From assembly GCA_030447305.1 (NCBI GenBank), contig JAUJPC010000001.1, forward strand, positions 114,459-178,458: a DNA stretch of 64,000 nt, read 5' to 3'. The first letter of the stretch is position 1; each line of letters starts with the position of its first letter. Below the pieces are notes generated by a model. It ran no database searches and was not told where the DNA came from. It worked only from the letters and a program-made list of their open reading frames with translations. Made by a program: the position numbers and the translations under genes. The stretch is from Actinomycetota bacterium (GTDB taxonomy: Bacteria > Actinomycetota > CADDZG01 > JAHWKV01). Below are positions 1 through 14,406 of this stretch, one piece after another.

Positions 1-212
1 TCCCTATACCGGATGCATCCCCTCAAGAACTTCGGCCAAGGCGGAACCGCGATCTCGGGTTCGATCGCCTCAGGCAAGAGATCCCAAAGCTGTGGATGGT
101 GCCAACAAAGGTCATGGCCGGAGCTGTCCCGGTGCGCCCGGATGCCGGCTCGAAGCCGCTGAACCTCCACGATCAGCTCGTCCCGACTCATGTGTTTAAG
201 GTCATTGTCCAT
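1..212 (-). CDS. Cassette hypothetical protein, 3' end outside window (MDNDLKHMSRDELIVEVQRLRAGIRAHRDSSGHDLCWHHPQLW...)
   Basis: Manual translation from ATG at 212, open to the window edge; follows the core site at 270-276. Confidence 0.75.
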   Translation of the reverse strand, partial: MDNDLKHMSRDELIVEVQRLRAGIRAHRDSSGHDLCWHHPQLWDLLPEAIEPEIAVPPWPKFLRGCIRYR

Positions 213-269
213 TGCGGTCCCTCACTCTCCTGGGTAGCCGAAATGCTCGCCTCATCTGCTCACCGGTCT

Positions 270-320
270 GCCCAACGGATTGTCACCCGCCGAAGGCCGG
301 AGAACACTTCTAAGTAGACG
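270..320 (-). other. Degenerate attC site
   Basis: GCCCAACGGAT at 270, the same flank as other attCs; opposite box degraded (GTAGACG near 314). Confidence 0.5.
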
Positions 321-324
321 GCTC

Positions 325-618
325 TCATTGGTGACTGCAGGGTGTCGCAAACGGTGTTCCGTCGTGGAAGACGTTCGCAGCAGAATAGATCGGCCAAAAA
401 ACGACGGTGAACGCCAGTCCAACGATCCCTCCAAAGACCTCCGGTTCCACGAATGCGCCTTGAACTCTGCGGGTTTCGCGGCAGGCTTCCGCTGCTGAGC
501 TCCACTTGAAATGGAACCCAAGACCAATACCGAGGTAGATCAAGACGAAGATCAGGAGAAGACAAGCCAGCTTACGAGTCTCGATGCGTTCATTCACTTC
601 AGCACTTCCTACGGTCAT
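325..618 (-). CDS. Cassette small membrane protein
   Basis: 97-aa ORF with two hydrophobic segments, ending next to attC. Confidence 0.6.
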   Translation of the reverse strand: MTVGSAEVNERIETRKLACLLLIFVLIYLGIGLGFHFKWSSAAEACRETRRVQGAFVEPEVFGGIVGLAFTVVFWPIYSAANVFHDGTPFATPCSHQ

Positions 619-624
619 TACGGA

Positions 625-1071
625 CTACCTAAGGAGAATCGTCTGCACCTGCATTCCAACGCCTACGGGTCGGGCGGTAGCTGTCCGCTGGATCGTATAT
701 GGTCGCCAGCACCTCGCGTACGAGCAATTGAAGATGATGTAGCCCTTCGCGCGATCGGCCGCTGTCGGTTCCCTTTCGATCGCGGCTCCCGTAATCAGAA
801 CCTCGCCGCCGCCGCCCTCAGTGTCCTCGACTGGCCCGTGCATCGCGTAGCGTCCGGTGCGACGAATATCCTGCGCCTTCGGCGACGTTGGGTACATCGT
901 CACGACCAGCCTGCTATCCCGGAGCGTGAACGGACCTACGGGGTGCACCCGGGGCCAACCATCACGCCGCACGGTTGCCAAGAAGCAAGGCGCAGCGGCG
1001 AGGCGTTCCTCGGCATGTTTCGCAAGTTCCGGCTGGCGTTGAGCGAACGTGTTCCAGGGCACTGCCTCCAT
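625..1071 (-). CDS. Pyridoxamine 5'-phosphate oxidase-like (PPOX) cassette protein, probable frameshift near 730
   Basis: FLATVRRDGWPRVHPV and TSPKAQDIRR motifs; a family-like C-terminus (LLVREVLATIY...RRRW) lies in the adjacent frame. Confidence 0.75.
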   Translation of the reverse strand: MEAVPWNTFAQRQPELAKHAEERLAAAPCFLATVRRDGWPRVHPVGPFTLRDSRLVVTMYPTSPKAQDIRRTGRYAMHGPVEDTEGGGGEVLITGAAIEREPTAADRAKGYIIFNCSYARCWRPYTIQRTATARPVGVGMQVQTILLR

Positions 1072-1104
1072 CGGTAATCCTCAGGCCACTCCGGTTCAAG
1101 GACC

Positions 1105-1171
1105 GTATAACGTACCGGCGAATCAGCCGCTGAGAGCTTAGCGACTGGCGGTTTGTATTCGCCAGTTATAC
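1105..1171 (-). other. attC site
   Basis: GTATAAC 1105-1111 ... GTTATAC 1165-1171 with inner palindrome ggcgaat/attcgcc. Confidence 0.9.
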
Positions 1172-1250
1172 AGCTCGCCGACCGAGGCCGGCCTGGCGAC
1201 TTCTCGTGAATACGACTCTGTGGAGCTCCGTCCGCCGTAGGCTGTGGGTC

Positions 1251-1498
1251 ATGAAATCGGACTACGAACGAAAGCGGGCTGAGGACTTTTGGAGTCGTTG
1301 GACAGGCTTTGGGTCGCGACAGACTACCCGGAGTGCCAAGAAATTGCGCTGTACACGGACCAAGAGTTGAAGCAGATCCTCGGCGAATGGGAACAGGTTC
1401 GCAAAGCCTGCGATGCAATCTGGGCCAGGATCCGGGATGCCAGGCCAGACCTTCAGGGATGGGATCCGATCAGTGGCGAGCGTCCACTAGGTCAATAG
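1251..1498 (+). CDS. Hypothetical cassette protein in inverted orientation, probable frameshift near 1288
   Basis: ATG 1251 (MKSDYERKRAEDF) joins ORF 1289-1498 across a T-run. Confidence 0.45.
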
Positions 1499-1534
1499 CT
1501 ACGGCCAAGCAGCATATTCCCGTTCTGTAGGGAT

Positions 1535-1587
1535 CTCAGCATCAGCGGCGCAGGGGAAGCGAGCGCCATTGCATGCGCGAGTCATGC
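1535..1587 (-). other. Degenerate attC site
   Basis: gcatcagcggcg...cgccattgcatgc inner stem and GTCATGC at 1581, one mismatch from the complement of GCATAAC at 2545. Confidence 0.5.
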
Positions 1588-1932
1588 CCACTCCAGGCTC
1601 TCTCCTGCTTTAAGGCCCTCGATGGTTGGAACCACCTGCTGAACGACCGTCCCGAACTGGCCGATGAGCAGGACGACTAAAGTCCAAAAGGCGATCACAG
1701 CACGCGAACGACGAGTCCTAGCTTTGCCGAACAAGCGAAAGACTCCGACAACCACAAGAGTGAAAACAACCGAACTAAGCGCTCTGCCGAGCACTTCGGG
1801 TCCGGGGCCGCCTTGGCGAATACCGGCGGAGAGTGCAAGGAAGCTAGAGACGACCAGGAGGACGGTCGCCGCGATTTCCCATCTTACGGGAGACTTCTCG
1901 CGGGGTCCTTGGGCAGCGTCAAACTCATTCAT
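1582..1932 (-). CDS. Cassette membrane protein with about 3 TM segments
   Basis: 116-aa hydrophobic ORF with AGGAGAG RBS; stop overlaps the attC box. Confidence 0.65.
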   Translation of the reverse strand: MNEFDAAQGPREKSPVRWEIAATVLLVVSSFLALSAGIRQGGPGPEVLGRALSSVVFTLVVVGVFRLFGKARTRRSRAVIAFWTLVVLLIGQFGTVVQQVVPTIEGLKAGESLEWA

Positions 1933-2159
1933 AATCTCTCCTGCTCCTCCAATGATGCCGACAGGGTAAAGGCAGACTGCCGTTCACCTGAGTATAGGAA
2001 TTGGCCTTCAGGCGAGGGCGAGCGCAGCCTCCGAACGGCCCGTGCGAATAAGAACCTAGCCTCATGCGTGAGCAATGAGAATGCAACCTACGGGGCACCA
2101 CGGACGGTATTCTTCGGGTCTCACGGCATCGAGGTTCACAGCGTTGAAAGGAGGGCCGG

Positions 2160-2468
2160 ATGCTGATCATGGCCGTACACCAGGTGCCCGGCCTCACTCG
2201 GGAGAAGTACGAAGAAGTCGTCCGCAAGCTCACAAACGGTAAGTCCCGTCTGGAGTCTCCCTCCGACCTGCCGTTCGAGGGGCTGTTGGTTCATGCCGCT
2301 GGCCAAGGCAAGAACGGGTTCTGCATCATTGACGTTTTTGAGTCGGAGGAGGCAGTCGAGCGCTTCCGCGAAGCGGTAACCCCAATCGCACAAGACGTAG
2401 GTATCGAAGAGCCACCGGAGTTCTTCCCAGCCGAGACATTCTTCTCGCTTGAACGCCGGACCATGTAG
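2160..2468 (+). CDS. Hypothetical protein, ABM/dimeric alpha-beta barrel-like, inverted orientation
   Basis: GGAGG RBS; sequence GLLVHAAG...IIDVFESEEAVERF. Confidence 0.65.
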   Translation: MLIMAVHQVPGLTREKYEEVVRKLTNGKSRLESPSDLPFEGLLVHAAGQGKNGFCIIDVFESEEAVERFREAVTPIAQDVGIEEPPEFFPAETFFSLERRTM

Positions 2469-2544
2469 ACCTCGGCATCCCGAGTGAGGCAGTTCTGGTG
2501 CACGAATCGCAGACAAACCTGGTCGGAGCCTGAGGCGTCTTTCG

Positions 2545-2615
2545 GCATAACCGATTGGCGCTTAAGCCGCCGCCCGCGGCGGTCCCTTGAGTCGGTTTGG
2601 AGCGGGCAGTTATAC
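2545..2615 (-). other. attC site
   Basis: GCATAAC 2545 ... GTTATAC 2609. Confidence 0.9.
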
Positions 2616-3226
2616 GCCGACGCGCCCAAAGTACCGTTCCATTCGTAGTTCCAATTGAGGTAGCTCCTGAAGGACGTCGGTCGTGCCTGGATTTGCGAAC
2701 TTCGCCAGCCCGGCTTCAAGAGCTCGCCGGGCGCGGTCAAGATCTCCAGCGTAGTAGAAGAGGTCAGCTGCGTCATGAAAGTGCCAACCCTCCTTAAGCC
2801 AGAATTCGGCGGCGCCCTCGTAAGATGACAGCCGTTCGAGAAACGGCAATCCAGTCCGCTCCACGTCTTGCCAAAATTGCTCCAGAATCGGGTTCTTTTC
2901 TCCAGGACTGAAAACTCTTGCTCGTGAAGACGACCAGCCCGGAATAAGCCAGTCGTTGCTTCCCGCGATCCAGAAATCACTGCTTGCGTCTTCCCTTGCT
3001 TCCGCCGCCATCGAGCGAAGGGCCTGGACTTGACCCCCCACGACGTCCAAAAGATCGTCGCGTCAAGGGTGCTGTCGTGGCTCAGCACGAAGCGAATTAC
3101 CTGATCGAACTCCCCCACCTTTCGCGAGAACTTGAGTTGACTGGTGGAGTACGCAAAGTTGATCGCTTGAAACCGCGGGACGACTTCGGTTTCCACCGCG
3201 AGACGAAACTGCTCTTTTGGTCTCAT
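2610..3226 (-). CDS. Cassette hypothetical protein, possibly DUF4304/immunity-like, frameshifted near 3000
   Basis: N-terminus in ORF 2291-3226, C-terminus in ORF 2610-3050; stop lies inside the attC box. Confidence 0.6.
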
Positions 3227-3234
3227 CTCAGTGC

Positions 3235-3330
3235 GTATAACGGATCATTGGTTAAGCTGCGCGGCGCCAACGCGGAATGGCGTTACACGAGTCACTTACG
3301 CGCCGTGTCAGTTTCAACCGCTTGTTAGAC
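3235..3330 (-). other. attC site (96 bp)
   Basis: GTATAAC 3235 ... GTTAGAC 3324. Confidence 0.88.
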
Positions 3331-3412
3331 GCCGCCGCGGTGAATCACGCGATCAGAATTGGACACAGTTCTCAAGGACTTCCAGCGGGATCTCTGTACC
3401 TGTCACATGTGG

Positions 3413-3865
3413 TCATCCGGAAGTTTGCTGCCCGAGCTCTTGGGCAAGCCCGATGAGAATTCTTCGGGGCCCCGGATGTAGCAGAGCCGATACGTGTCTT
3501 CGTACTGGACCACTTCCCCGACGAGTTCCGCGCCGCGTTTGCCAAGCCGGGCGACCGTATCGTCGATGTCCTGCACGGTGAACATGACACGTAGATAACC
3601 GAGGGCGTTCACCGGGGCGCTGCGGTGATCGGCGACCACAGGCGGCCGCGAGGAATCGGGACACCTCGAGCCGGCTGTGACGGTCCGGCGTACGCAACAT
3701 GGCAATCTCGACGCGCATGTCCCGTAATCCAGTGACGCCATCTGCCCAGTCTCCTTCGATTGGGGCGCGCCCCTCGAGCTCGAGGCCAAGTTCGGTGAAG
3801 AATTCAATGGCGGCGTCGATGTCCTCTACCACGATGCCGACGTTGTCCATTCGCTTGATCGTCAT
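3413..3865 (-). CDS. VOC/glyoxalase family cassette protein, frameshifted
   Basis: RMDNVGIVVEDIDAAIEFFTELG ... LRVMFTVQDIDD ... YRLCYIRGPE spread over two frames; AAGGAG RBS. Confidence 0.85.
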   Translation of the reverse strand: MTIKRMDNVGIVVEDIDAAIEFFTELGLELEGRAPIEGDWADGVTGLRDMRVEIAMLRTPDRHSRLEVSRFLAAACGRRSPQRPGERPRLSTCHVHRAGHRRYGRPAWQTRRGTRRGSGPVRRHVSALLHPGPRRILIGLAQELGQQTSG

Positions 3866-3879
3866 GATGTCTCCTTGGC

Positions 3880-3942
3880 GTCTAACGGAATGCCGGGTCA
3901 GCCGCCGCCCGCGAAGCCGGCGGTCGGTTGCAGCCGGCAGTT
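3880..3942 (-). other. attC site interrupted at its GTT by IS110; remainder GTTAGGC at 8115-8121
   Basis: GTCTAAC 3880 ... ccggcaGTT 3940-3942; joining to AGGC at 8118 restores GTTAGGC, the complement of GCCTAAC at 8849. Confidence 0.85.
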
Positions 3943-4029
3943 GATACATATCGACCCTGATCCACTACTCGATGCGGGTCCTGTGCGAGTAAGGGACCTC
4001 CAGCTGTGGTTGACGACAGGGAGGTGGCC

Positions 4030-5319
4030 GTGGGGGACATCGGAGGGGTTGAGCAGGGCCGGTTTGTCGAGCGGATCCGAAACGCCGAAAGAGAGCGGTT
4101 GCTGGCAGCCCCGATCGACGTCGGCAAAAGGACCGCTGCAGCTCTGGTCTGCGACTTTTGGGGTGAGATCGTCACTGCCCCTTTCGAGTTCGATCTGAAC
4201 GAATCCGGCTTCACCAAGCTTAGGGCGCAGCTGGTTAGAGCGGAAGCCAGCCGGGACGTTGCCCTTACCCGGGTCGGGGTCGAGCAGGCCGGCCACTACC
4301 ACGACACCCTGGTTGCCCGGCTGCAGACCGAAGGCCTGGACGTGGTGGTGCGCTCAGAACCTGCTGCGCTCGGTCAAGACCGACGCCCGGGACCTGGCGG
4401 CGATGGCCGAGTTGATGATCCGTGGTCTGGGACGCCGCCCGGAGCTCGAGGACGGCCCGGTGGCCCGTCAGGCGGTCCTGGTCGCTCATCGACGGCGCAA
4501 GATCAAGGCCCGCAGGGCGCTTAAGAATCAGGTGCTCGCCACCTGGGATCTGGTCTTCCCCGGACTCGACGGGTGCTTTTCAGACATGTTGTCGACCAAG
4601 GTCGGCAAGGCGCTGCTGGCCGAGGCGATCACTCCCTCCCGGGTGCTTCATCTGGGACCCGAGCGCTTCCGGGCCTTCTGCGCCAACCGGGGAGTGGTGG
4701 TCGATCGTTTCAAAGCCGATCAGGTGATTAAGGCGGCCAGAGAAGCGTTTGCGCTGCCGGATGTGCGTGCTCAGGTGCTGCTCGAGGTTCTGGCGGTTGA
4801 CGCCAAACTCATGCAGAAGTTGGATTCGACCATCGAGGCGGCCGACCATTGTCTGGCCGAGGTCCTCGGTGACACCCCGGCACGGGTGCTCACTTCGATC
4901 CCTCATGTCGGGGTGGTTCGGGCCTCCAACTACGGCGGGGCGGTGGGCAACATCGACCGCTTCACCAGCTCGGCTCAGGTCTACAAGTTGAGCGGCCTGG
5001 TATCGAAACTGCACGAGTCGGCGGGCAAACGCCGGGGAGGTCTGGCGATCAGCAGGGCGGGCAAGGTCGAGCTCAGAGAGGCGATTCTGGAGCTCGGCAA
5101 GGGGCTGCGTCTGGGTGATCCCGACTTGGAGACTACGCCCGGCAGATGAAACAGCGGGGTAAGCCGGGCGGTGTGATCCTGTGCGCTTTGGGGCACCGGG
5201 CCAACCGACTGGCGTTCGCCATGATGCGCGACCAGAGCCGGTTCGAGCCCAAGGCGTGGCCGGCGCGAGAAGCGGACGGAGCCCTCATGCCCGACCTAGG
5301 TCGACCACCATCGAAGTGA
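4030..5319 (+). pseudogene. IS110 transposase/recombinase with an apparent deletion near 4350 and a frameshift near 5128
   Basis: PIDVGK, GVEQAG, KTDARD and ESAGK motifs across three frames; GGGAGG RBS before GTG 4030. Confidence 0.85.
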
Positions 5320-5385
5320 ACCGTCCGCCGGGCTGATCGTTTCATCTTCAAACAGGTTTGGCGAACGCAGGCCGAGGTGTGGACG

Positions 5386-5461
5386 GGGCCGGATCTCAAC
5401 GTCGAGCCAGTTAAGGGGCCCGAACTACTCGGGACTTCGTGCCTAACATGACGCCCGGCCC
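5386..5461 (+). ncRNA. Putative bridge/seek RNA target-binding loop of the first IS110
   Basis: Nested stems around an internal loop carrying GCCAGTTA (5406-5413, matches left target) and TGCCTAAC (5440-5447, reverse complement of GTTAGGCA at 8115-8122). Confidence 0.75.
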
Positions 5462-5665
5462 TTTCCCCATTGGGAGTACGAACGTAGTTGTCTGGGCCGC
5501 CCGGCTGCCGGGTGTCGGCGATCACTGAATCTCGCGAAACATGATCATCGAATCTCGCGGTGATCTGACAAATTGACGCTCCTCCCGCAGGGTTAATCCA
5601 CCCTGCGTGGTCATTGCCCTCCGAGGCTGTTGGCGACCAAGCCGAACAGCCAGGAGGGCTACACG

Positions 5666-6987
5666 ATGATGACTCAGGAGGAGTATTTGGACATTCCAGG
5701 ACTGAAAAGGCAAGGCTGGACCCTGCAGCAGATCGCCGAGGAGGTCGGGTACCACCCGGCGACGGTACGGGAGTGGATCCGCCGGGGTGGACCGCCACAG
5801 AAGCGGCAGATCGATCCGGCCAACCTTGTGATCAACGAGCACTGGGCCCAAGAGATAGCCATGCTGCTCAAGGCCAACCCCAACCTGCTCGCCACCTCGG
5901 TCGAGCGGCTGCTCCGAGCTAAAGGCTTCACCGGCAGCTACCCGACGCTCGCTCGGTACCTGTGCGGGGTGCGAGGCTCACGTCGGGGCCGGCAGGTCGA
6001 GGTTTCGGTTCCGATCGAGACCGCCCCCGGGGAGGAGTTCCAGTTCGACTGGTCCGACTGTTGCGACTTCGCCCGGCTGTGGGGGTGGGAGCAGCTGCAC
6101 TGTTTCGGGGCGATCCTGTGCTACTGCCGGCGCCGCCACTGGTGGTTCACCGACTCAATCGACCGCCACCACACCTTCGAGGGGCTGGTGCGCTTTTCGA
6201 GGACACCGGCGGAGTCCCCGGAGTCGGACGCACCGACCGGATGGGGTGCCTGGGTCGCTCCCACGGCCGGGTGTTTCGCTGGTTCGCTGAGTCGTTGGAG
6301 TTCGCCGCCTACCACGGCTTTTCCTTCAAGGCGTGCCAGGCCGGCGACGCCAAGCGCAAGGGCAAGGTGGAGCGTCCCTTTTGGGAGATGAAGGAGGCGT
6401 TCTTGCAGGAGGTGACCGTGACCGGACCACCCGCCAGCATCAACGAGCTGAACCGAAGGGCTGACGAATGGCTCGAGCACAACGTCCACCACCGGCCCCA
6501 TCGGGTGACCGGGATGGCTCCGGCGGAGCGGATCAAAGACGAGCTGCAGATGTTGGGGCCGCTTCCCCGCCTCAGATTCGACACCTCAAAGCGGGAGTCC
6601 CGCCAGGTCGGGCAAGCGGTTCCGATGATCGAGGTCGACGGGGTCTTCTACTCGGTGCCACCGGCCCTGGCCAGCCAGATCGTGGAGGTCAGGCTGCCGG
6701 TTGACCGGCGAATCATCGAGGTACGCCACCGGGGCCAGCTGCAGGTTACCCACCAGATTGCCCCCTCAGGTTCCGAGCCGGTCTGGGACCCGCGCCACCG
6801 CCGGGAAGCGGAGCAGATTGCACTCAGCCGCCACCGGCGAACCCCGAGGTTCTCCCCGCATGAGCAGGTCTTGGTTGATCTGCTCGATCTTGGTGAGGGC
6901 GACTACGACGTCGAGCCGGTTCGGCTTGAGAGCTATGACCCGGACTCAGCCTGCTGCGGTTGCGGCTGGGCAGGGGGTGTGCGGTGA
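5666..6987 (+). CDS. istA: IS21 transposase IstA, frameshift near 6195
   Basis: N-terminal HTH, ETAPGEEFQFDW, KGKVERPF and YSVPP motifs. Confidence 0.9.
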
Positions 6988-7751
6988 GCGAATCGGTGTA
7001 CGAGCAGATCAAAGACGGCTTAGGTTACCTAAAGCTCAACAAGGCCGAGGAGTGCTTTGCCACCCTGGTGGAGCAGGCACGAGACGACAAGTGGGACCAC
7101 CTGCAGTTTCTGGCCCGGCTGGTGGACGAGGAGGTGACCGCCACTCGCAACCGCCGGCTGGCTTCCCGCATGCGCTTCGCTCACCTTCCCGGGCGGCGCA
7201 CCCTCGAGGATTTCGACTTCGACTTTCAGCCCTCGATCGATCGCAAGCTGGTCGAGGATCTGGCCTCCTTGAGGTTCGTCAAAGAGGGAAGGCCAGTTTT
7301 GTTTTTAGGCCAGCCCGGCTGCGGCAAGACCCACCTTGCGGTGGCCCTTTGCACCCTGGCGGTGGAGGCAGGGTACCGGGGCTACTTCGCCTCGGGAGCC
7401 GACATGTGCGCCTCGATCGCCGCCGCCTACGCCGAGGGCACCTTCAAGCTCAAGATGCGCACCTACACCGGTCCTTCGGTCCTGGTGATCGATGACGTCG
7501 GGCTGGTGCCGCTCGACCGGGCGGCGGGAAACGCCTTCTACCAGGTGGTCAACCGCCGCTACGAGATGGGCTCATCTACCATCGTCACCACCAACCGGGG
7601 GCTGCCCTCCTGGGGCGAGGTCTTCGGTGACTCGGTTGTCGCCGCCGCAATTTTGGACCGGCTGATGCACCGGGCGGTGGTTTTCAACATCAAGGGGCCG
7701 TCCTGGAGGATGCGCGAACACCAGGCCCTCGCCGAGGCGGTAAAGCAATGA
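6984..7751 (+). CDS. istB: IS21 helper ATPase IstB
   Basis: GQPGCGKTHLA Walker A, LVIDD, AAAILDRLMH. Confidence 0.95.
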   Translation: MSESVYEQIKDGLGYLKLNKAEECFATLVEQARDDKWDHLQFLARLVDEEVTATRNRRLASRMRFAHLPGRRTLEDFDFDFQPSIDRKLVEDLASLRFVKEGRPVLFLGQPGCGKTHLAVALCTLAVEAGYRGYFASGADMCASIAAAYAEGTFKLKMRTYTGPSVLVIDDVGLVPLDRAAGNAFYQVVNRRYEMGSSTIVTTNRGLPSWGEVFGDSVVAAAILDRLMHRAVVFNIKGPSWRMREHQALAEAVKQ

Positions 7752-8142
7752 GGGACTGCTCTGTGCCGTACTCAAGCCCCTCCCCAACTCCCAAACGCGG
7801 CTCTCAGCCCAACTCAGGAACTGAAAAATCTGCCAGAACCGTTATGAAGGTGTCTGGTGGCCCAAAAGAGCGCAAAGGAGGTCGCTGCTAAGGTTAATCG
7901 AGCGAGGAGCGTCACTCTGAGTAAATCGCGAATTTCGGTGATCATAAATCGCGGTTTTCAGTGATCGCCAAGACCGGGTGAGTCCGCGTAGATCAGCGAG
8001 TGCCTCAGGGATCGAACATCTCGCCGGCGCCGCCGACCTCATAAACGAAAATTCCCCCTCATCGAGGGGCTGGAGCGCCTACTGCCGGGTCGGGGATTGA
8101 CAGGAACCACAGTTGTTAGGCAGCGGTCGCAAGCGGTGACTA

Positions 8143-8838
8143 TCAAGGCAAGTGGTCGCTGCAAAACTTCTGGACGAACAGAAGCATTTGTTTGACCTGT
8201 TCCTTGTCGTAATTCGAGAAACGACCATGTGCCGCATCATTTCGCAAATTTGCCCACGAGGTGATCTGCTTCTGAACGAGAGGACCGTACAGTTTTGCTT
8301 TGTATAGGGCGTTGTTGAGCGGATCAATCGTGAACGGCTTCCCGTCTTGATGTGACGTTTGAAGCCCACTGGAGTCAGCAATTTTTCGAAGCGAGTCTTC
8401 AAGTACCGCCCCCAAGAGCACGGCTGAAGCATCCTTGTAGCCCTCCTCGAGCAAATGCTCTGCCATTTCAAGAAAGTCCGCGAAGATCTCCGCCCGCAGT
8501 AACCCCTGCAAGCTCAATATCAAGCCAGAGCTAACGTCGTGTGCAACGCTGCGAAGGATTCCAACTAGTTCACTAACGTGCTCGTAATGGTTGGAATGGA
8601 TAACTGTGAAGGCCGGAGTTGCCAACACTTTCTGCATCGACTGGTGGTAGTGGCTCTCTTTTCCATAGAGACGCAAGACGAGTTGCCCACCCCTTACCGC
8701 TACGGACGACAACTCTTCAATTTGATCATGGCCTAGGGACCGGTCAGCTCTGCTCGCCTCAGCTGACAGCCGGCTAGCGCTTTCGACTAAGTCCTTGACC
8801 TCGTTCGCGACCAGTTCGGTAACCTGGCTAACTGGCAT
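8143..8838 (-). CDS. HEPN-domain (DUF4145-like) cassette protein
   Basis: AEHLLEEGYKDASAVLLGAVLED and Rx4H motif RNDAAH. Confidence 0.8.
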   Translation of the reverse strand: MPVSQVTELVANEVKDLVESASRLSAEASRADRSLGHDQIEELSSVAVRGGQLVLRLYGKESHYHQSMQKVLATPAFTVIHSNHYEHVSELVGILRSVAHDVSSGLILSLQGLLRAEIFADFLEMAEHLLEEGYKDASAVLLGAVLEDSLRKIADSSGLQTSHQDGKPFTIDPLNNALYKAKLYGPLVQKQITSWANLRNDAAHGRFSNYDKEQVKQMLLFVQKFCSDHLP

Positions 8839-8848
8839 CAGGCCTGCT

Positions 8849-8914
8849 GCCTAACGTGATGCCCGGTCAGTCGCAGCCCGCGAGGCCGGCTGTCGGTTGT
8901 ACCGGCAGTTGGGC
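8849..8914 (-). other. attC site
   Basis: GCCTAAC 8849 ... GTTGGGC 8908. Confidence 0.9.
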
Positions 8915-8920
8915 AGCTCA

Positions 8921-9609
8921 CTATGCTGTCCCCTCGTACTGGACGAGCTCCCATGGGTACACCGCGAGACAGTCATAAATATGCTGACGCACCCTATTTG
9001 AAGAGACTGCCGCGAGCCGCTGGATGAAATCTGCGGATTTAGTCACGTCTGACTTCTTTACGGAGCGGCTGGTGGACACACGGTGAGCAATTTCACCCCT
9101 CAACTCGACTCGCCTGGTTAGGCGTGCGCGGGCTGAATCCGGTGTGGTCCTATGCCACGCCAGCAATCCGACAACCGTGTAATTCCGAGAAGATCCTCGA
9201 AAAGGGCGTCGATCTGCTCAGGCTTGGGAGTATTCAAAGCCCCGGCGAAGCGCTTCAAAATCTTGTCCCGGTGCGCTTGAAGTATGACTTGCCATCCTGT
9301 TCCAGCGAGTTCCCAGACTCGGCGTTCGTCGTTGCTGCTCCTAACCTCTCTGGACGCCGCAGTAAGGACTTTTGACGGAAACACCGAGTGAGTAGTTGCG
9401 GCGGCCAGCATCGTGTCAAACGCACTGGTCGCAAGGTCTTCAACGTACGCCTCCCAGCAGGCGACCAAGAGCACCACGCCACTCTTGTTCAAGACGACGA
9501 TGTCGTGACGCCTCCCCGGGCGAGTCCCGGAAATCTCCTCGTGTATTGCAACAAGGCGTAAGACCTCATAGGTGTTCGAATTCAGGTTTGCGACATGGGT
9601 GGGGGGCAT
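8921..9609 (-). CDS. HEPN-domain (RiboL-PSP-HEPN-like) cassette protein, frameshift near 9165
   Basis: NKSGVVLLVACWEAYVED, LNTP and Rx4H motif RGEIAH. Confidence 0.75.
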
Positions 9610-9665
9610 ATTAGTGGCTGCCTAAGGTGAAAATCCACTTGTGCGACCTTGATGCCCTCCCGTGA

Positions 9666-10909
9666 TCATGCCGCCTCCAGCGGGGTGAGGTGAACCTGGT
9701 ACCCGAGAGCGTTCAGCTGCTGCGTTAGCTTACGGGCATGCTGCACCTTGTTCTGTCTGGACATGAACCAGTCAGGGCCTAGGTCCTTGTAGGGAACCAT
9801 GTCCTCAAGGATGTGGAAAGCGGCAACCAAGATCGAGTGGGCGACCGCCACGGTGGCCTTGGCCTGGCCCCTGCGGCCGCGGAGCCGAGCGTACTGGGCG
9901 AAGAGGTAGGTGCCTTTGGCCTTACCGGCAGCCTTGGCCGCCTGCGTGAGGTCCATGTGGAGCCACTTTGAACCCTTCCTGGTCTTGCCGGTGTGGCTCT
10001 TGCCCGCAGACTCGTGCTGGCCGGGACACATTCCCGCCCAGGACGCCAGTCGTCCTGGTGAGCCGAATCGAGCCATGTCGACTCCGATCTCAGCGATGAT
10101 CGATTGAGCGACCCGCTTGTCGACTCCGGGAATGGTGTCGAGCAGTTCAACCTGACGCTCGAAAGGGGCAATGACCACCTCGATCTCGTCGGAAAGCGAC
10201 TGGATCAGCTCGTCGAGAAAGTCCAGCTTGGACAGGATCGCCCCTACTACCAAGGCATGGTGAGAGGTGAACCGCCCGGTCAGGGCATCCTTGAGGTCGG
10301 GAAGCTTCCTGCGCAGCGTTCCCTTCGCAAGATCGGCCAGGATCTGTGGGTCGGTGGTGCCCTCCACCAAATCAAAGCCTTCAGCATCGCCTTGCCGCTG
10401 ACGCCGAGCACGTGAGTCGCCACCGACGACAACTTGATGCCGGCGTCCTGGAGCACCTTGTCCAGACGCTGCGCCTCGCGAGAGCGCTCCTCGATCTGGG
10501 CCTTGCGGTAGCGGGTCAGATTGCGCAGCTCCCGGATCTGCTTGGGCGGCACGAAGCTCGGTTTCACCAGACCGTGCGCCACGAGCTGGGCGATCCAGGC
10601 AGCGTCGGCCACATCGGTCTTGCGGCCCGGGACGTTGCGAAGATGGCGGGCGTTCAAAAGCCAACACTCGAACTCATCCTCGAGCATGTAGTAAACGGGC
10701 TTCCAGTAGACCCCGGTCGACTCCATCCCAACCACATCGACGTCGAAGGCCTTCAACCAGTCCCTCAGCGCAAGCAATTCGACAGTGGTGGTCTTAAAAG
10801 TGTGGGTCTGGGACTGTCGGCTTGCGCCTTGATCCCCGAACCTGACGCAGGCGACCACAGTGTCCTTGTGCACGTCCAAGCCTGCACACCTGTTGATGAG
10901 CGTGTCCAC
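9666..10909 (-). CDS. IS110 transposase/recombinase, frameshift near 10370
   Basis: GLDVHK, GMESTG, KTDVADA, TIPGVD and HESAGK motifs. Confidence 0.92.
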
Positions 10910-10929
10910 TCAACCTCCCCTCGATCGAA

Positions 10930-11125
10930 CAATCGAGACCGCCCAGGGGAGCCTCATCGCATGGAGTCTAAGGTTCGTGCTCGCAGCAACAGTTCACGGT
11001 GCCCGAAGCTCCCGGGTCCCACTAACGGACGGGCTCGCTTGCACCAAGGCGACTCGACCTCGCAGGACAGTCCGCTCACATTTTCATCTGTTGCTGGTGC
11101 CGTAGCCAAAGGCGCGGCATTCTCA
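10930..11125 (-). ncRNA. Putative bridge RNA of the second IS110
   Basis: TCCGTTAG (11022-11029) equals the target flank plus core, and ACCTTAG (10968-10974) equals the element end plus core; each is enclosed by a short stem. Confidence 0.65.
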
Positions 11126-11187
11126 CTAACGGATCGGTCGATTAGCCGCTAGTGCAGCCGGCCGTCAGTCGTCCCGGCCATTTAGGC
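11126..11187 (-). other. Remainder of the attC interrupted by the second IS110
   Basis: CTAACGGAT ... TTTAGGC 11181, one mismatch from the complement of GCCTAAC at 11461. Confidence 0.65.
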
Positions 11188-11204
11188 AGCAGAGGATGCC
11201 CGGC

Positions 11205-11430
11205 TCAGACCCACCGGTCGCATTTGCAACTCGGCATGATGCACTTAGCCGCTCCAGGATGCTCCGTCTTGAGATGTTTGCAGCGTCGACACTTGACACG
11301 GCGTTCTTCCCTTCCAATCGCGCGATCGCGTTTTTGTGCCGGGGTGAGCTGTTCGATGTGCAGCTGAGTCCCCGTCCGTCCCTTCATATTTCCCCCATCG
11401 GAAACCCTTACTCCAAGAACATTGCGTCAT
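11205..11430 (-). CDS. Small Cys/His-rich cassette protein, possibly frameshifted
   Basis: CRRCKH...EH...C...CKC pattern; fills the cassette between attC sites. Confidence 0.45.
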
Positions 11431-11460
11431 GTTGTTCTCGTCACCGAACTAGTCAAGTCT

Positions 11461-11522
11461 GCCTAACGTACTGCCGTTTGAGCCGCCGACGAAGGAGGTC
11501 GGCTTCCAAACGGTAGTTATGT
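11461..11522 (-). other. attC site
   Basis: GCCTAAC 11461 ... GTTATGT 11516 with ccgtttg/caaacgg stem. Confidence 0.92.
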
Positions 11523-11528
11523 CGCATC

Positions 11529-11741
11529 TCATCGGAGACGATTGAACTCTTCTACAGAGAGTCCGGCGTCTTTCACGATCCCACCCATGGTGAATGCGTT
11601 CACCGGGTTCGCTCGAGGAATCGTCAGAATTCGCTGCCCGTTCGACATGACGACGTGCTTGCCCTGCCGAACGATATTGAACCCGGCTTTCTGGAGGGCC
11701 CGCACAGCTTCCTGGTGCGAGACGCCCGGAATGCTCGGCAT
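11529..11741 (-). CDS. hicA: HicA-family toxin
   Basis: ALQKAGF..VRQGKHVVM..LTIP..GIVKDAGLSVEEF. Confidence 0.88.
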   Translation of the reverse strand: MPSIPGVSHQEAVRALQKAGFNIVRQGKHVVMSNGQRILTIPRANPVNAFTMGGIVKDAGLSVEEFNRLR

Positions 11742-11944
11742 TAGATGGCGACTTCGATCTCCCTGATCTCGGCGCCTTCCAGTTGCTCATCAGCTACGGA
11801 GAGGTAAGCGTGAATGGCATCCTTGACGTTCTCGAGAGCCTCGTCTTCGTCGCTTCCCTGAGACCAACAACCGGGAAGCCCGGGCACTGACACGGCAACG
11901 CCTTCATCCGATTTAAACAGGGCTACCCGAAACCGCTGAGTCAT
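11741..11944 (-). CDS. hicB: Short HicB-family antitoxin
   Basis: VSVPGLPGCWSQG..EALENVKDAI; TAATG overlap with hicA. Confidence 0.88.
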   Translation of the reverse strand: MTQRFRVALFKSDEGVAVSVPGLPGCWSQGSDEDEALENVKDAIHAYLSVADEQLEGAEIREIEVAI

Positions 11945-11982
11945 GTAATCAGTGTACAGAGGGGATCTGACGACATCAGTCG

Positions 11983-12105
11983 ACATAACGGATTAGCGCC
12001 TCAGCCGTCCGCCCGCGTAGCCGGCGGTCGGTTGCAGGCATAACGGATTAGCGCCTCAGCCGTCCGCCCGCGTAGCCGGCGGTCGGTTGCAGGCGCTAGT
12101 TATAC
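11983..12105 (-). repeat. attC site with a tandem 55-bp duplication
   Basis: 11984-12038 equals 12039-12093; complete attC runs GCATAAC 12038 ... GTTATAC 12099. Confidence 0.9.
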
Positions 12106-12149
12106 GGCCTAGGCACCTCAACGATTGCGGCCTTTGGGACCTAAGGATT

Positions 12150-12401
12150 TCATCGCCTCAGCTGCTGCCTCCCGTCGCCTCCGCAGTTTAGGTATGTACA
12201 TCGCTCAAACACTGCGTAAGCCGACCCGAAGATTAGTGACATGAGAGCTAACACCGGCCAACCGGGATCGAATTGGCCCTTCGTCTGAACGAAGAAAGTG
12301 CCAACCGCAAAGAGGCCACCGGAAAGAATCCCCCAGAACCAAGGGTGCTGATCCTCATGCTTCTTCAGGTGCTGGCCGAAGCTTGCCTTGGGATCCGTCA
12401 C
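12150..12401 (-). CDS. Cassette small membrane protein
   Basis: 83-aa ORF with two hydrophobic segments, between attC sites. Confidence 0.65.
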   Translation of the reverse strand: MTDPKASFGQHLKKHEDQHPWFWGILSGGLFAVGTFFVQTKGQFDPGWPVLALMSLIFGSAYAVFERCTYLNCGGDGRQQLRR

Positions 12402-12409
12402 CTCCGCCC

Positions 12410-12470
12410 GTATAACGGACCGCGGATTGAGCCGCCGACAAAGGAGGGCGGCTCCAATCCGCAGTTATGC
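12410..12470 (-). other. attC site
   Basis: GTATAAC 12410 ... GTTATGC 12464 with gcggattg/caatccgc stem. Confidence 0.92.
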
Positions 12471-12739
12471 CGTGACCCCGAAGCGCTAGAAGATAGGACA
12501 CGGCTATCCCGAACTCTTCCGTCGAGACTTTGCAGACATTCCCTTTAGGAGGCTACCGGCGAGCACCATGAGTGGCGTCATCACGGCCGCAACAACCAGA
12601 TCAACTTCGCCCTCCAAAATCAGATCCGTAACAGCGAACGCAACGGCGAATGTGAGACGATGATCGCTCCGCCCAGAAACGGCTTTTCATTCTGCAACTG
12701 CTTCCAGCGGTCATGGCCGGTCATCTCATCATCGAATCG

Positions 12740-12807
12740 GCATAACGGATTAGCGCCTCAGCCGCCCGCCCGCGTAGCCGGCGGTCGGTTGCAGGCGCTA
12801 GTTATAC
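12740..12807 (-). other. attC site, near-identical to 12038-12105
   Basis: GCATAAC 12740 ... GTTATAC 12801; one substitution relative to the 12038 copy. Confidence 0.92.
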
Positions 12808-12965
12808 GGCGAGTGCGGTCTGTTTGAACTTGAGGCATTAACTAAGTGTGACCGGGATTGCGCTGGCCGCCGGAGAAGATGTTCGAGAGCGGAGAGCCAG
12901 GCCCTTGATTCAGCGCTCAGAACTGCCACGCGCGAGCCCCCTGATCTTCACGAGCCAACGTGTCC

Positions 12966-13026
12966 GTATAACGGAATGCCGGCTCAGCCGCCGCCAAAGG
13001 CGGTCGGTTGTAGGCGGCAGTTATGC
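12966..13026 (-). other. attC site
   Basis: GTATAAC 12966 ... GTTATGC 13020. Confidence 0.92.
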
Positions 13027-13216
13027 GGTGGGCCATGGATCCGATGCAAGCTCCTTTTTGGATCAATCATCGTTCCTTCTTTCGCCTTCGCCAATTGAGC
13101 CACCGCCCAATAAGCAATGCCACTGCCGCGCCGATGGCACCAGAGATCAGTTCCTGGACAACAAAGTCACCAATCAAGCCTGAGCCACGTATTCCAGTGA
13201 TCCATTTCCTGTGTCG

Positions 13217-13268
13217 GCATAACTACTATTTCGCGAGGTCTCGATAACACGCCGCTCCTCGATAACAC
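13217..13268 (-). promoter_or_regulatory. Putative attI site with two 11-bp direct repeats
   Basis: Last core GTTATGC (minus, 13217-13223) has no palindromic partner; CTCGATAACAC at 13240-13250 and 13258-13268. Confidence 0.75.
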
Positions 13269-13351
13269 TCCCACTTCCTGGCGTTCGAAGTCGTGTTATG
13301 AAGCTCATCAGATGAAGTCGTTTGTGGTCATGCGACTCCTCTTAGCGTTAT

Positions 13352-14406
13352 TCAGTCAGTGTACCGCGGTAACCGTTCGGTTGACCCAAATCTATCCAGC
13401 GGACTCCTCACGCCATGGCCGCCTCGATTGAGAACATGGGTGTAGATCTGAGTGGTCTTTACGCTGGCATGACCCAATAGCTCCTGGACCGTTCTGATGT
13501 CGTAACCGTCTTCCAAGAGGTGCGTAGCGAACGAGTGCCGCAGTACGTGAGGAGTTGCGTGTTTAGCGATCTGAGCTCTCAGGCTGGCGCTGCGGACTGC
13601 CTTCTGCACTACGGACTGGTGTAAGTGGTAGCGATATTTGATGCCGTCGTGTCATCAGTGAAGTAAGTGGCCGCAGGGAAGAGCCACTGCCAGCCCCACT
13701 CCCTTTCAGCGTTGCGGTATTTGCGGCCGAGCGCGTAAGGCAAAGGCACCCGCCCCAGTCCCATGGTCAGGTCTTTGTCATGAATACGTTTCGCACGTAC
13801 TAGATGGCTCTTCAATGGATTCATGACCAGGTCGGGCAGCATGGTGATTCGGTCTTTGTTGCCCTTCGCCCGTTTGATCGTTATCTGCCGACGCCCGAAA
13901 TCGACATCTTTGGCCCTTAGGTTGAGCGCTTCATCCAGCCGTAGGCCGCTTCCGTAGAGAAGCTGGCAGATAAGCAATGGAAGGCCATCCAGCTGCTCGA
14001 ATAGCACACGCACTTCCGACCTGGATAGAACCGTGGGCATGCGTTTGGGCTTTCGCGCCCTGGCGATGTTCTCCATATGTTCCAGAGGCTGACCGAGCAC
14101 CTTGGAATAAAAGAATAGGAGCGCACACAGCGCCTGATTCTGGGTGGAAGCGGCAACATCCTCGCCGACCGCCAACTGCGTAAGGAATGCATTGACCTGC
14201 TCTTCACGCAATTCATGGAGGTCGATGCCACCATGAAAGCGAAGAAAGCGCTCTATCCAGAACAGGTAAGCCTTCGCGGTTCTCTCACCGTAGTTTCGAG
14301 CACGTAGGACCCGGCGTGCTCTTTCTACGGCTTCGTCTTGGGGTTTCCGAACAACCTGCAGACGAGGACGCGCATTGGTTAGGCGAGCTTCCCGGGACGT
14401 ACTCAA
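13352..14406 (-). CDS. intI: Integron integrase (tyrosine recombinase), single-base frameshift near 13645
   Basis: [22 protein letters not shown], integron-specific insert [50 protein letters not shown]. Confidence 0.96.

Follow-up and report, generated by a model that had tools for sequence, protein, structure and literature searches.

How does an insertion sequence (IS) come to lie inside the recombination site of an integron? The question is raised by a locus in a 64,000-nucleotide stretch of DNA from an uncultured member of the Actinomycetota (GenBank assembly GCA_030447305.1, contig JAUJPC010000001.1; the whole stretch is called the window below), where an IS110-family element at 3940-8117 on the plus strand splits an integron attC site at the trinucleotide GTT. 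An earlier reading made from the letters of the window alone, called here the sequence-only reading, had proposed an RNA-programmed recombinase of the IS110 type, with two target guides encoded in its non-coding end and aimed at attC, from a divergent transposase lineage in an actinobacterial host. Our analysis describes a defunct IS110-family insertion sequence whose right non-coding end very probably encodes a two-loop bridge (seek) RNA. The evidence consists of complementarity between the sequence and its target, covariation between RNA and DNA across relatives, and RNA structure, all of which are observed here.

The boundaries of the element follow from its junctions. The 3-nt core GTT is present once at each of them (3940-3942 and 8115-8117, plus strand) with no further duplication, the pattern by which IS110-family insertions are recognised; the left copy is followed by GATACA, which is conserved at left junctions, and the right copy was placed from the sequence together with a comparison of junctions. 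The left flank terminates in GCAGCCGGCA and the right flank opens with AGGCAGCGG, which sets the interruption at 3939/3940. On the cassette (minus) strand, the larger part of the interrupted attC (3880-3939) contains L'', the loop, L' and R' (GTTAGAC, 3886-3880), and the next cassette open reading frame (ORF) beyond it begins at 3868. The short part (8118-8130, minus strand), immediately preceded by the stop of ORF 8838-8143, forms together with the core R'' (GCCTAAC). The interrupted site runs from GTCTAAC at 3880-3886 to GGCA-GTT-AGGCA and is similar to an intact attC at 8850-8913, which reads CCGGCAGTTGGGCAGC; because the junction letters and this intact site agree, the empty site is reconstructed as CCGGCA-GTT-AGGCA, the same target that had been proposed from the sequence alone. 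The insertion lies directly after R'' on the cassette strand; the attC concerned comes next after ORF 8838-8143 and is interrupted at its 5' end, with the transposase antisense to the cassettes. No second copy of the IS110-type element was found in its own genome. Among the contigs of four DNA runs that were compared with 3700-8400, no empty attC was seen and no contig spanned the whole element; loose contig ends at 3933-3935 were assigned to other attCs.

With a nested IS21-family element set aside, the gene for the transposase has 93 nt of non-coding DNA on its upstream side and 329 nt on its downstream side. In the downstream region, the minimum-free-energy fold of 5372-5474 has three nested stems, P1 (5385-5392/5455-5462), P2 (5400-5404/5449-5453) and P3 (5415-5423/5429-5438), which make up a putative target-binding module (5385-5462, plus strand) that also appears in the consensus structure and pair counts of 39 relatives. 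Two 8-mers on the plus strand, GCCAGTTA (5406-5413) and TGCCTAAC (5440-5447), face each other across its internal loop. The former, the left target guide, has the top-strand sense of GGCA-GTT-A and would pair with the bottom strand; it agrees with the left junction GGCAGTTA at seven of eight positions. The latter, the right target guide, is at all eight positions the reverse complement of GTTAGGCA at the right junction (GTT-AGGCA, 8115-8122), for which our own arithmetic gives a chance expectation of about 0.005 occurrences (a given 8-mer, one orientation, about 322 positions). The coordinates given by the sequence-only reading for the GTT split, both 8-mers and the nested stems are all correct, and the same box is indeed present in the other attCs that it had listed, at 1161 (GCCAGTTATACA), 2605 (GGCAGTTATACG) and 13016 (GGCAGTTATGCG), as well as at 8904 (GGCAGTTGGGCA). 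A search against Rfam returned no family above threshold in the window except three tRNAs, and on the intact non-coding end of the closest relative it gave chance-level matches alone (sR43, E = 0.041; RAGATH-25, E = 0.81).

The evidence that carries the reading comes from related elements. A protein search yielded 362 relatives, the closest full-length ones measuring 445-453 amino acids (aa) with 78-88% identity, and 71 loci were scanned, of which 60 came from metagenomes and 11 from genomes (10 of these being metagenome-assembled genomes (MAGs) of Actinomycetota); transposase identity within the clade is 50-88%. The loop motif was present in the window and in 50 of the 71 loci, and locus L021 was added under a relaxed pattern. 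The IS ends are conserved as well: left junctions consist of the core followed by GATACA, right junctions of TTGACA, 6-9 nt and AC(G/A)GTT followed by the core. Junctions were placed by these end motifs alone and the guides were compared with the flanks afterwards, against 20,000 shuffled pairings. Left guides agreed with left flanks at 112 of 140 positions in 35 non-redundant loci (shuffles: mean 43.8, s.d. 6.0, maximum 67), and right guides with right flanks at 104 of 164 positions in 41 loci (mean 61.8, s.d. 4.9, maximum 86); none of the 20,000 shuffles reached either value. When one locus was kept per distinct guide, the agreement was 77 of 96 for the 24 left guides (mean 30.4, s.d. 4.9, maximum 51) and 69 of 108 for the 27 right guides (mean 38.3, s.d. 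4.2, maximum 54), again with 0 of 20,000 shuffles reaching the observed counts. The core within the guide equalled the core at the junction in 33/35 (left) and 41/41 (right) loci, and the base to the right of the core was A in all 41. Across about 40 independent loci, the sequences of the predicted loop strands covary with the insertion flanks.

A single pair of elements illustrates this compensation. The closest relative, L031, is intact, about 84% identical in DNA and free of the IS21 interruption, and it occupies an attC that reads GGCATAAC and then GCGCCA-GTT-ATGCC; its left loop strand, GCCAGTTA, matches its own left junction at 8/8 positions. On the right, L031 combines the guide TGCATAAC with the flank GTTATGCC where the window combines TGCCTAAC with GTTAGGCA, such that a C-to-A change in the guide accompanies a G-to-T change in the flank. 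The family as a whole contains at least 24 left guides and the cores GTT, GCT and ACT. In a tree of 27 transposases (the window pseudogene and loci L032 and L034, which could not be placed, were left out), L031, L020 and L033 form one clade (support 100/100) that falls among elements with the GCT core and is distinct from another clade with the core GTT; the 3-nt core has switched at least twice. At one locus, L058, the left junction has the core ATT and the right junction GTT, with ATTA in the 5' guide and TAAC in the 3' guide; this difference in the first core base may mark the side of the core where strands exchange. A 53%-identical relative at L062 (4277-4500) keeps the donor module described below and the right-end motif, with no recognisable target loop before the module, and its right flank opens with C in place of the otherwise invariant A.

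The structure of the putative RNA was examined by aligning 39 non-coding ends, namely the naturally uninterrupted one of L031 and those of 38 other relatives. Five helices comprising 32 base pairs were 95.6% paired, compared with 84.9% in shuffled sequences and 38-50% when the partners were slid against each other, and changes on both sides were found in 19 of the 32 pairs. The guides occupy the internal loop between helices 3 and 4. Downstream of it the relatives have a second module, composed of an outer stem (GGG(A)GCAC/GTGCCCC), an inner hairpin and two loop strands. The 5' loop strand (RGTTGY) corresponds to the last four nucleotides of the right end plus two core bases, and the 3' strand (TCARY) to the reverse complement of the core plus the GA of the left end. 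The right strand fits this prediction in 39/39 relatives and the core base of the left strand agrees in all 36 relatives where the pattern could be read. On these matches the second loop is a predicted donor-binding loop, and the putative RNA is thereby a complete bridge RNA whose core is 3 nt long (GYT). In the window the IS21 element separates the two strands of this loop, leaving a 5' half at 5472-5512 (plus strand; outer stem strand GGGAGTAC at 5472-5479, left donor guide AGTTGT at 5486-5491 and the start of the inner hairpin) and a 3' half at 7979-8006 (plus strand; the other hairpin strand, right donor guide TCAGC at 7993-7997 and outer stem strand at 8000-8006). The sequence-only reading had described the target loop as we find it and had overlooked this donor loop, cut in two as it is. 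The ends of the element carry further conserved features. The left end (3943-4035, plus strand), 86% identical to that of L031, begins with GATACAT, which holds the right-donor half-site and a candidate -10 region; the right end (8097-8114, plus strand) contains TTGACA (8097-8102), a candidate -35 region, and, at 8109-8114, ACAGTT as the left-donor half-site. A circle would bring TTGACA of the right end and TG-n-TACAYN of the left end to a distance of 17 nt in 19 of 22 elements, and the joined ends probably form a junction promoter, fitting those described for the IS110 and IS1111 families.

Several relatives share the preference for attC. L031, L032, L034 and L020 are all situated in attC-like palindromes, at the same end, and relative to the IS the body of the attC lies on the side where the window has it; moreover, L020 starts inside a further copy, whose right flank reads GTTATGC, and the flanks of L033, the clade-mate of L031 and L020, are not clearly attC. 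The genome that contains L020 (G001, a second Actinomycetota MAG) has an open integron integrase gene (intI, 421 bits). In the window itself, positions 1-13,300 form a cassette array on the minus strand in which short ORFs alternate with imperfect palindromes of the type RYYYAAC...GTTRRRY (1161, 2605, 3936, 8904, about 11451-11515 and 13016; at least seven attCs). Sequence and folds show the target to be one of these imperfect palindromes, downstream of a cassette ORF in an array that adjoins intI. The homologue collection and the comparison of loops with insertion sites that the sequence-only reading had suggested as a check thus bore out its central proposals, namely that the element is predicted to be RNA-programmed through two target guides and that it is aimed at attC.

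How firmly this can be said depends on what the window and the relatives each contribute. On the window alone, the matches might be chance resemblances between GC-rich sequences, with the hairpins acting as the transposase gene's terminator or attenuator: the folding energies are ordinary (z = -1.22, with 21 of 200 shuffles at least as stable, and z = -1.12), and the target 12-mer, allowing up to two mismatches, is not enriched in the window (7 found, 7.16 expected). For these two reasons the window sequence cannot by itself settle the matter, and whether more than chance is at work has to be judged from the comparison to relatives. There, the absence of any shuffle reaching the guide-flank agreement on either side, the compensatory changes in 19/32 pairs and the donor guides that follow the core in 39/39 relatives make such an explanation extremely unlikely. 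A different possibility is that the protein, or the folded attC, selects the site, the resemblance between loop and flank being incidental or the relic of a captured attC. Such sites do have structure, and IntI is an example of a protein that recognises them; moreover, the two loop strands are mutually complementary over GTTA/TAAC, so part of the covariation could serve RNA structure alone. The signal, however, is carried by variable guide bases outside this self-complementary core, and relatives whose guides spell sequences other than attC sit in matching non-attC flanks, as reflected in the agreement at 77/96 positions over 24 distinct left guides. Two genomes that hold such relatives (genomes G002 and G003; loci L022 and L029) have no integron integrase above the cut-off. 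Site choice by the protein or by attC structure is accordingly very unlikely. The bridge-RNA reading, which we prefer, has to accommodate a number of observations that weigh against it besides the ordinary folding energies. The left guide of the window carries one mismatch (GCCA versus GGCA), and its right donor guide is TCAGC where the GTT core predicts TCAAC, the sole exception among 40 elements. RNAalifold omitted the outer donor stem on the full alignment, and the stem appeared once the module was realigned alone. Agreement on the right declines away from the core (40, 28, 20 and 16 of 41), leaving the right guide informative for just two to three bases past the invariant A. Individual loci fit poorly (L022 and L023, 2/4 left; L047, 1/4 left; L021, 2/4 right), and related sequences are non-independent, so that the shuffle counts overstate significance. 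Among the 21 loci missed by the strict loop pattern, L056, L069, L071, L089 and L090 have downstream sequence without the motif and are more distant or disrupted, and L062 has a donor module with no recognisable target loop. As to the remainder, 52-181 nt or nothing follows the gene match in L028, L032, L035, L036 and L043 and in L034, L068 and L077 (matches stop at the contig end); L030, L086, L087 and L088 are short partial matches; and L067 and L075 fell outside the inspection of motif-less loci.

A further alternative accepts RNA guidance and concerns ancestry. A group of attC-targeting IS1111 elements (IS1111-attC: ISKpn4, ISPst6, ISPa21 and ISPa25) is on record, with Tetu and Holmes (2008) and Post and Hall (2009) cited for it, and the window element might be a plain member of it, sharing its descent and seekRNA design with, for example, ISPa21, ISPst6 and ISKpn4. 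RNA-guided attC targeting has been published for ISKpn4, ISPst6 and ISPa25 (Siddiquee et al. 2024, PMC11187229). The likeness is considerable. Both have a DEDD transposase and a guide RNA encoded downstream of its gene, in a long non-coding region as in IS1111 (PMC11187229); in both, two short RNA segments match opposite target strands and overlap at the insertion point. One attC end is targeted in either case, the insertions of ISPa21 and ISPst6 being described as near the attC 5' end and antisense to the cassettes (PMC3001079), as here. The insertion geometry is thus common to both, yet the defining IS1111 features that we tested are lacking. Subterminal inverted repeats (7-17 bp in IS1111) were not found in 22 elements: comparison of the first 50 nt with the last 50 gave longest exact inverted matches of 4-8 nt, a length that was reached by at least 52 of 200 shuffles in 20 of the elements, by 30 in L031 and by 4 in L055, the only one clearly above shuffles. 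Intact relatives encode transposases of 445-453 aa, about 100 aa longer than those of IS1111 (330-350 aa) and within the range of the IS110 subgroup (395-455 aa; both ranges as stated in PMC11187229). Guide order is also reversed, since in IS1111 seekRNAs, as described there, the segment complementary to the top strand is located 5' of the one complementary to the bottom strand. The best annotated relatives are IS110-family genes on actinobacterial plasmids (39-43% identity), and the hosts are Proteobacteria there and uncultured Actinomycetota here. Plain membership in the IS1111-attC group is, on this evidence, quite unlikely.

The putative bridge-RNA element of the window resembles other characterised systems in part. 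With IS621 it has in common a pair of internal loops, the target loop coming first (5') and the donor loop second, predicted pairing of the 5' loop strands with the bottom strand and of the 3' strands with the top strand, a guide of about 8 nt spanning the left half-site and the core, and a core that takes part in all four pairings (Durrant et al. 2024, PMC11208160; structures 8WT6 and others). The two differ in that the IS621 bridge RNA is in the left end, upstream of the recombinase gene, and here it is in the right end; in that the IS621 core is the dinucleotide CT, as against three bases (GTT, GCT or ACT) followed in the target by an invariant A; and in protein length (328 aa versus 447 aa), with the C-terminal domain alone detectably alike (1e-9). 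ISEc21, an IS110-family element for which a seekRNA was shown experimentally, likewise places the bottom-strand match 5' of the top-strand match, lacks long subterminal repeats and gains a junction promoter upon end joining, but its non-coding region precedes the transposase gene, and its targets are transposase genes of the IS3 family (PMC11187229). The same paper notes some IS110-family members with a downstream non-coding region, which are uncharacterised there. Long IS110-subgroup transposases of actinobacteria belong to the same size class and provide the best annotated protein matches; compared by protein alone, their identity (39-43%) is far below the 50-88% seen within the clade. Judged by its predicted RNA, the element has a mixed layout, with the guide order of IS621/IS110 and the RNA at the right end as in IS1111. 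The literature that we searched contained no paper on an IS110-type attC-targeting element outside IS1111, the supplementary catalogues of PMC11187229 and PMC11208160 lying outside that search.

Taken together, these features suggest how a working relative would operate, with transcription, RNA binding and catalysis presumed by analogy with IS621, ISEc21 and ISKpn4. The element would excise as a circle, and its joined ends would create the donor site ACRGTT-GYT-GATACA and probably also the junction promoter (TTGACA, a 17-nt spacer and TACAYN, with TG upstream), from which the transposase gene and then the RNA would be transcribed. Of the donor-loop strands, the 5' one would have the sense of the last four nucleotides of the right end and two core bases, and the 3' one would be complementary to the core and the GA of the left end. 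In the target loop, the 5' strand (four variable nucleotides, GYT and A) would base-pair to the bottom strand over the core and the positions to its left, and the 3' strand (variable nucleotides and TARC) to the top strand over the core and the positions to its right. The DEDD recombinase would then swap strands within the 3-nt core, which would stay at both junctions. As the guides of the window element spell GSCA-GTT-AGGCA, the R'' (5') end of attC, such an element would land there in antisense orientation and sever R'' from the rest of the site.

The window copy itself is inactive, a fossil without a function of its own. Its DEDD transposase pseudogene (4036-5320, plus strand) is read in three frame pieces; relative to the open 440-codon frame of L031, 29 nt are gone near 4351-4355 and 1 nt near 5128, and the 29-nt gap takes out a stretch with residues that are invariant in the family alignment. 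The assignment to the IS110 family made by the sequence-only reading is confirmed by profile searches of the window pieces (the N-terminal DEDD/RuvC-like domain PF01548, 34.4 bits on 4036-4350; the C-terminal domain PF02371, 39.8 bits on 4355-5146) and by P0005, an intact relative scored in place of the broken gene (447 aa, 87% identical to the window piece), which matches NF033542, 'IS110 family RNA-guided transposase', with 151.9 bits (cut-off, 140 bits). P0005 is weakly similar in its C-terminal part to the solved transposases of ISCro4 (3.7e-10) and IS621 (1e-9), and its best annotated relatives are IS110-family genes on plasmids of Mycolicibacterium, Mycobacterium, Streptomyces and Rhodococcus (39-43% identity, 88-95% coverage). 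The nested IS21-family element (5513-7973, plus strand), identified by a Pfam IstB match (1.6e-71), by end alignment and by a contig of run X5, is bordered by CCGGG on both sides (5508-5512 and 7974-7978). Its istA is split over two frames (5630-6391 and 5962-6987) and its istB (6960-7751) is whole. The copy is dead because of the two frame-breaking deletions, the IS21 in the donor loop and the one donor-guide base at odds with the core.

Sequencing runs, of which 15 were listed, none of them of RNA, offered a view of less degraded copies. In run X5, which belongs to another study, one contig joins 5503 to 7974 with three letters in between and has an extra T behind 5125, where the window transposase gene is out of frame; there must therefore be an element, about 94% similar, that lacks the IS21 and keeps that frame whole. 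Its right flank runs on with 42 letters resembling 3879-3920, the start of an attC. A joint from 5507 to 7974 in run X2 was given no weight, as it had 23 letters on its shorter side and came from the same study as the likely source. Contigs of the same run contain an extra T behind 6193 within the IS21 (88.6 of 107.1 depth), so that other IS21 copies in that sample seem frame-intact.

The surroundings place the element in a chromosomal integron of an uncultured host. The integrase gene intI (13391-14325, minus strand) matches TIGR02249 with 271.1 bits at 13642-14325 (cut-off, 265 bits) and is broken, because a second piece (13391-13690, 136.9 bits) is in another frame. The integron extends over 1-14406, and intI has the orientation of the cassettes, these being located on its downstream side, an arrangement that we take to be the 'inverted' layout. 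Two cassette ORFs on the minus strand (8143-8838 and 9118-9609) gave weak HEPN RiboL-PSP matches (E = 9.3e-6 and 1.8e-7), and the cassette at 3413-3868 a weak match to a glyoxalase/bleomycin-resistance-like fold that, with E = 4e-5, did not reach the cut-off. The window belongs to a contig of 986 kb in a 2.88-Mb genome and also contains IF-2 and PNPase. Among the 120 best PNPase matches listed, identity reached 93% and the named relatives were all MAGs of Actinomycetota or Acidimicrobiales bar one 'soil metagenome', which points to an uncultured soil actinobacterium as the host, in line with the actinobacterial origin first proposed for this divergent lineage. The IntegronFinder 2.0 survey of complete genomes (2022; PMC9024848) reports that none of the complete integrons came from Actinobacteria.

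The same array contains another IS110-family element, unrelated to the first (9622-11129, minus strand); its transposase is spread over two frames (9666-10667 and 10280-10909), and a long non-coding region precedes the gene on its upstream side. This element occupies the opposite, R' (GTTAGGC), end of a different attC, GATCCG-TTAG-GCAGC, and lies 12 nt ahead of where ORF 9609-9118 begins. Within the 5' non-coding region, the 10-mer at 11029-11020 is identical to the element's left junction at 10/10 positions; in relatives, the homologous 10-mer differed from the left junction by 0-2 mismatches in five of the six loci read, L098 giving no match and L097 being missed by the pattern.

Neither the mechanism nor the targeting of attC by a guide RNA is new in itself, both having been published before; the novelty lies in the lineage and its architecture in uncultured Actinomycetota. 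It seems to us somewhat probable that RNA-guided elements of the IS110 family colonised integron attC sites in these bacteria independently of the IS1111-attC group of Proteobacteria, as in the two unrelated elements of this window, one with a right-end RNA for R'' and the other (at about 9626-11125) with an upstream RNA for R'. The quasi-conserved attC ends would then be recurrent safe harbours, found by guide RNAs through convergence, and the family would amount to a series of recombinases reprogrammed in nature. As a class of programmable recombination systems, bridge and seek RNAs are two years old, and natural variety in RNA placement, core length and guide layout feeds both their mechanistic study and engineering. 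The present family would offer IS621-type guide logic at the right end, a switching 3-nt core and dozens of naturally reprogrammed guide/target pairs, and, if the reading is true, an RNA placement and core length unlike those of the systems engineered so far. For integron biology, it would mean that RNA-guided elements parasitise integron recombination sites outside the Proteobacteria as well; each such insertion halves an attC and should freeze the neighbouring cassette.

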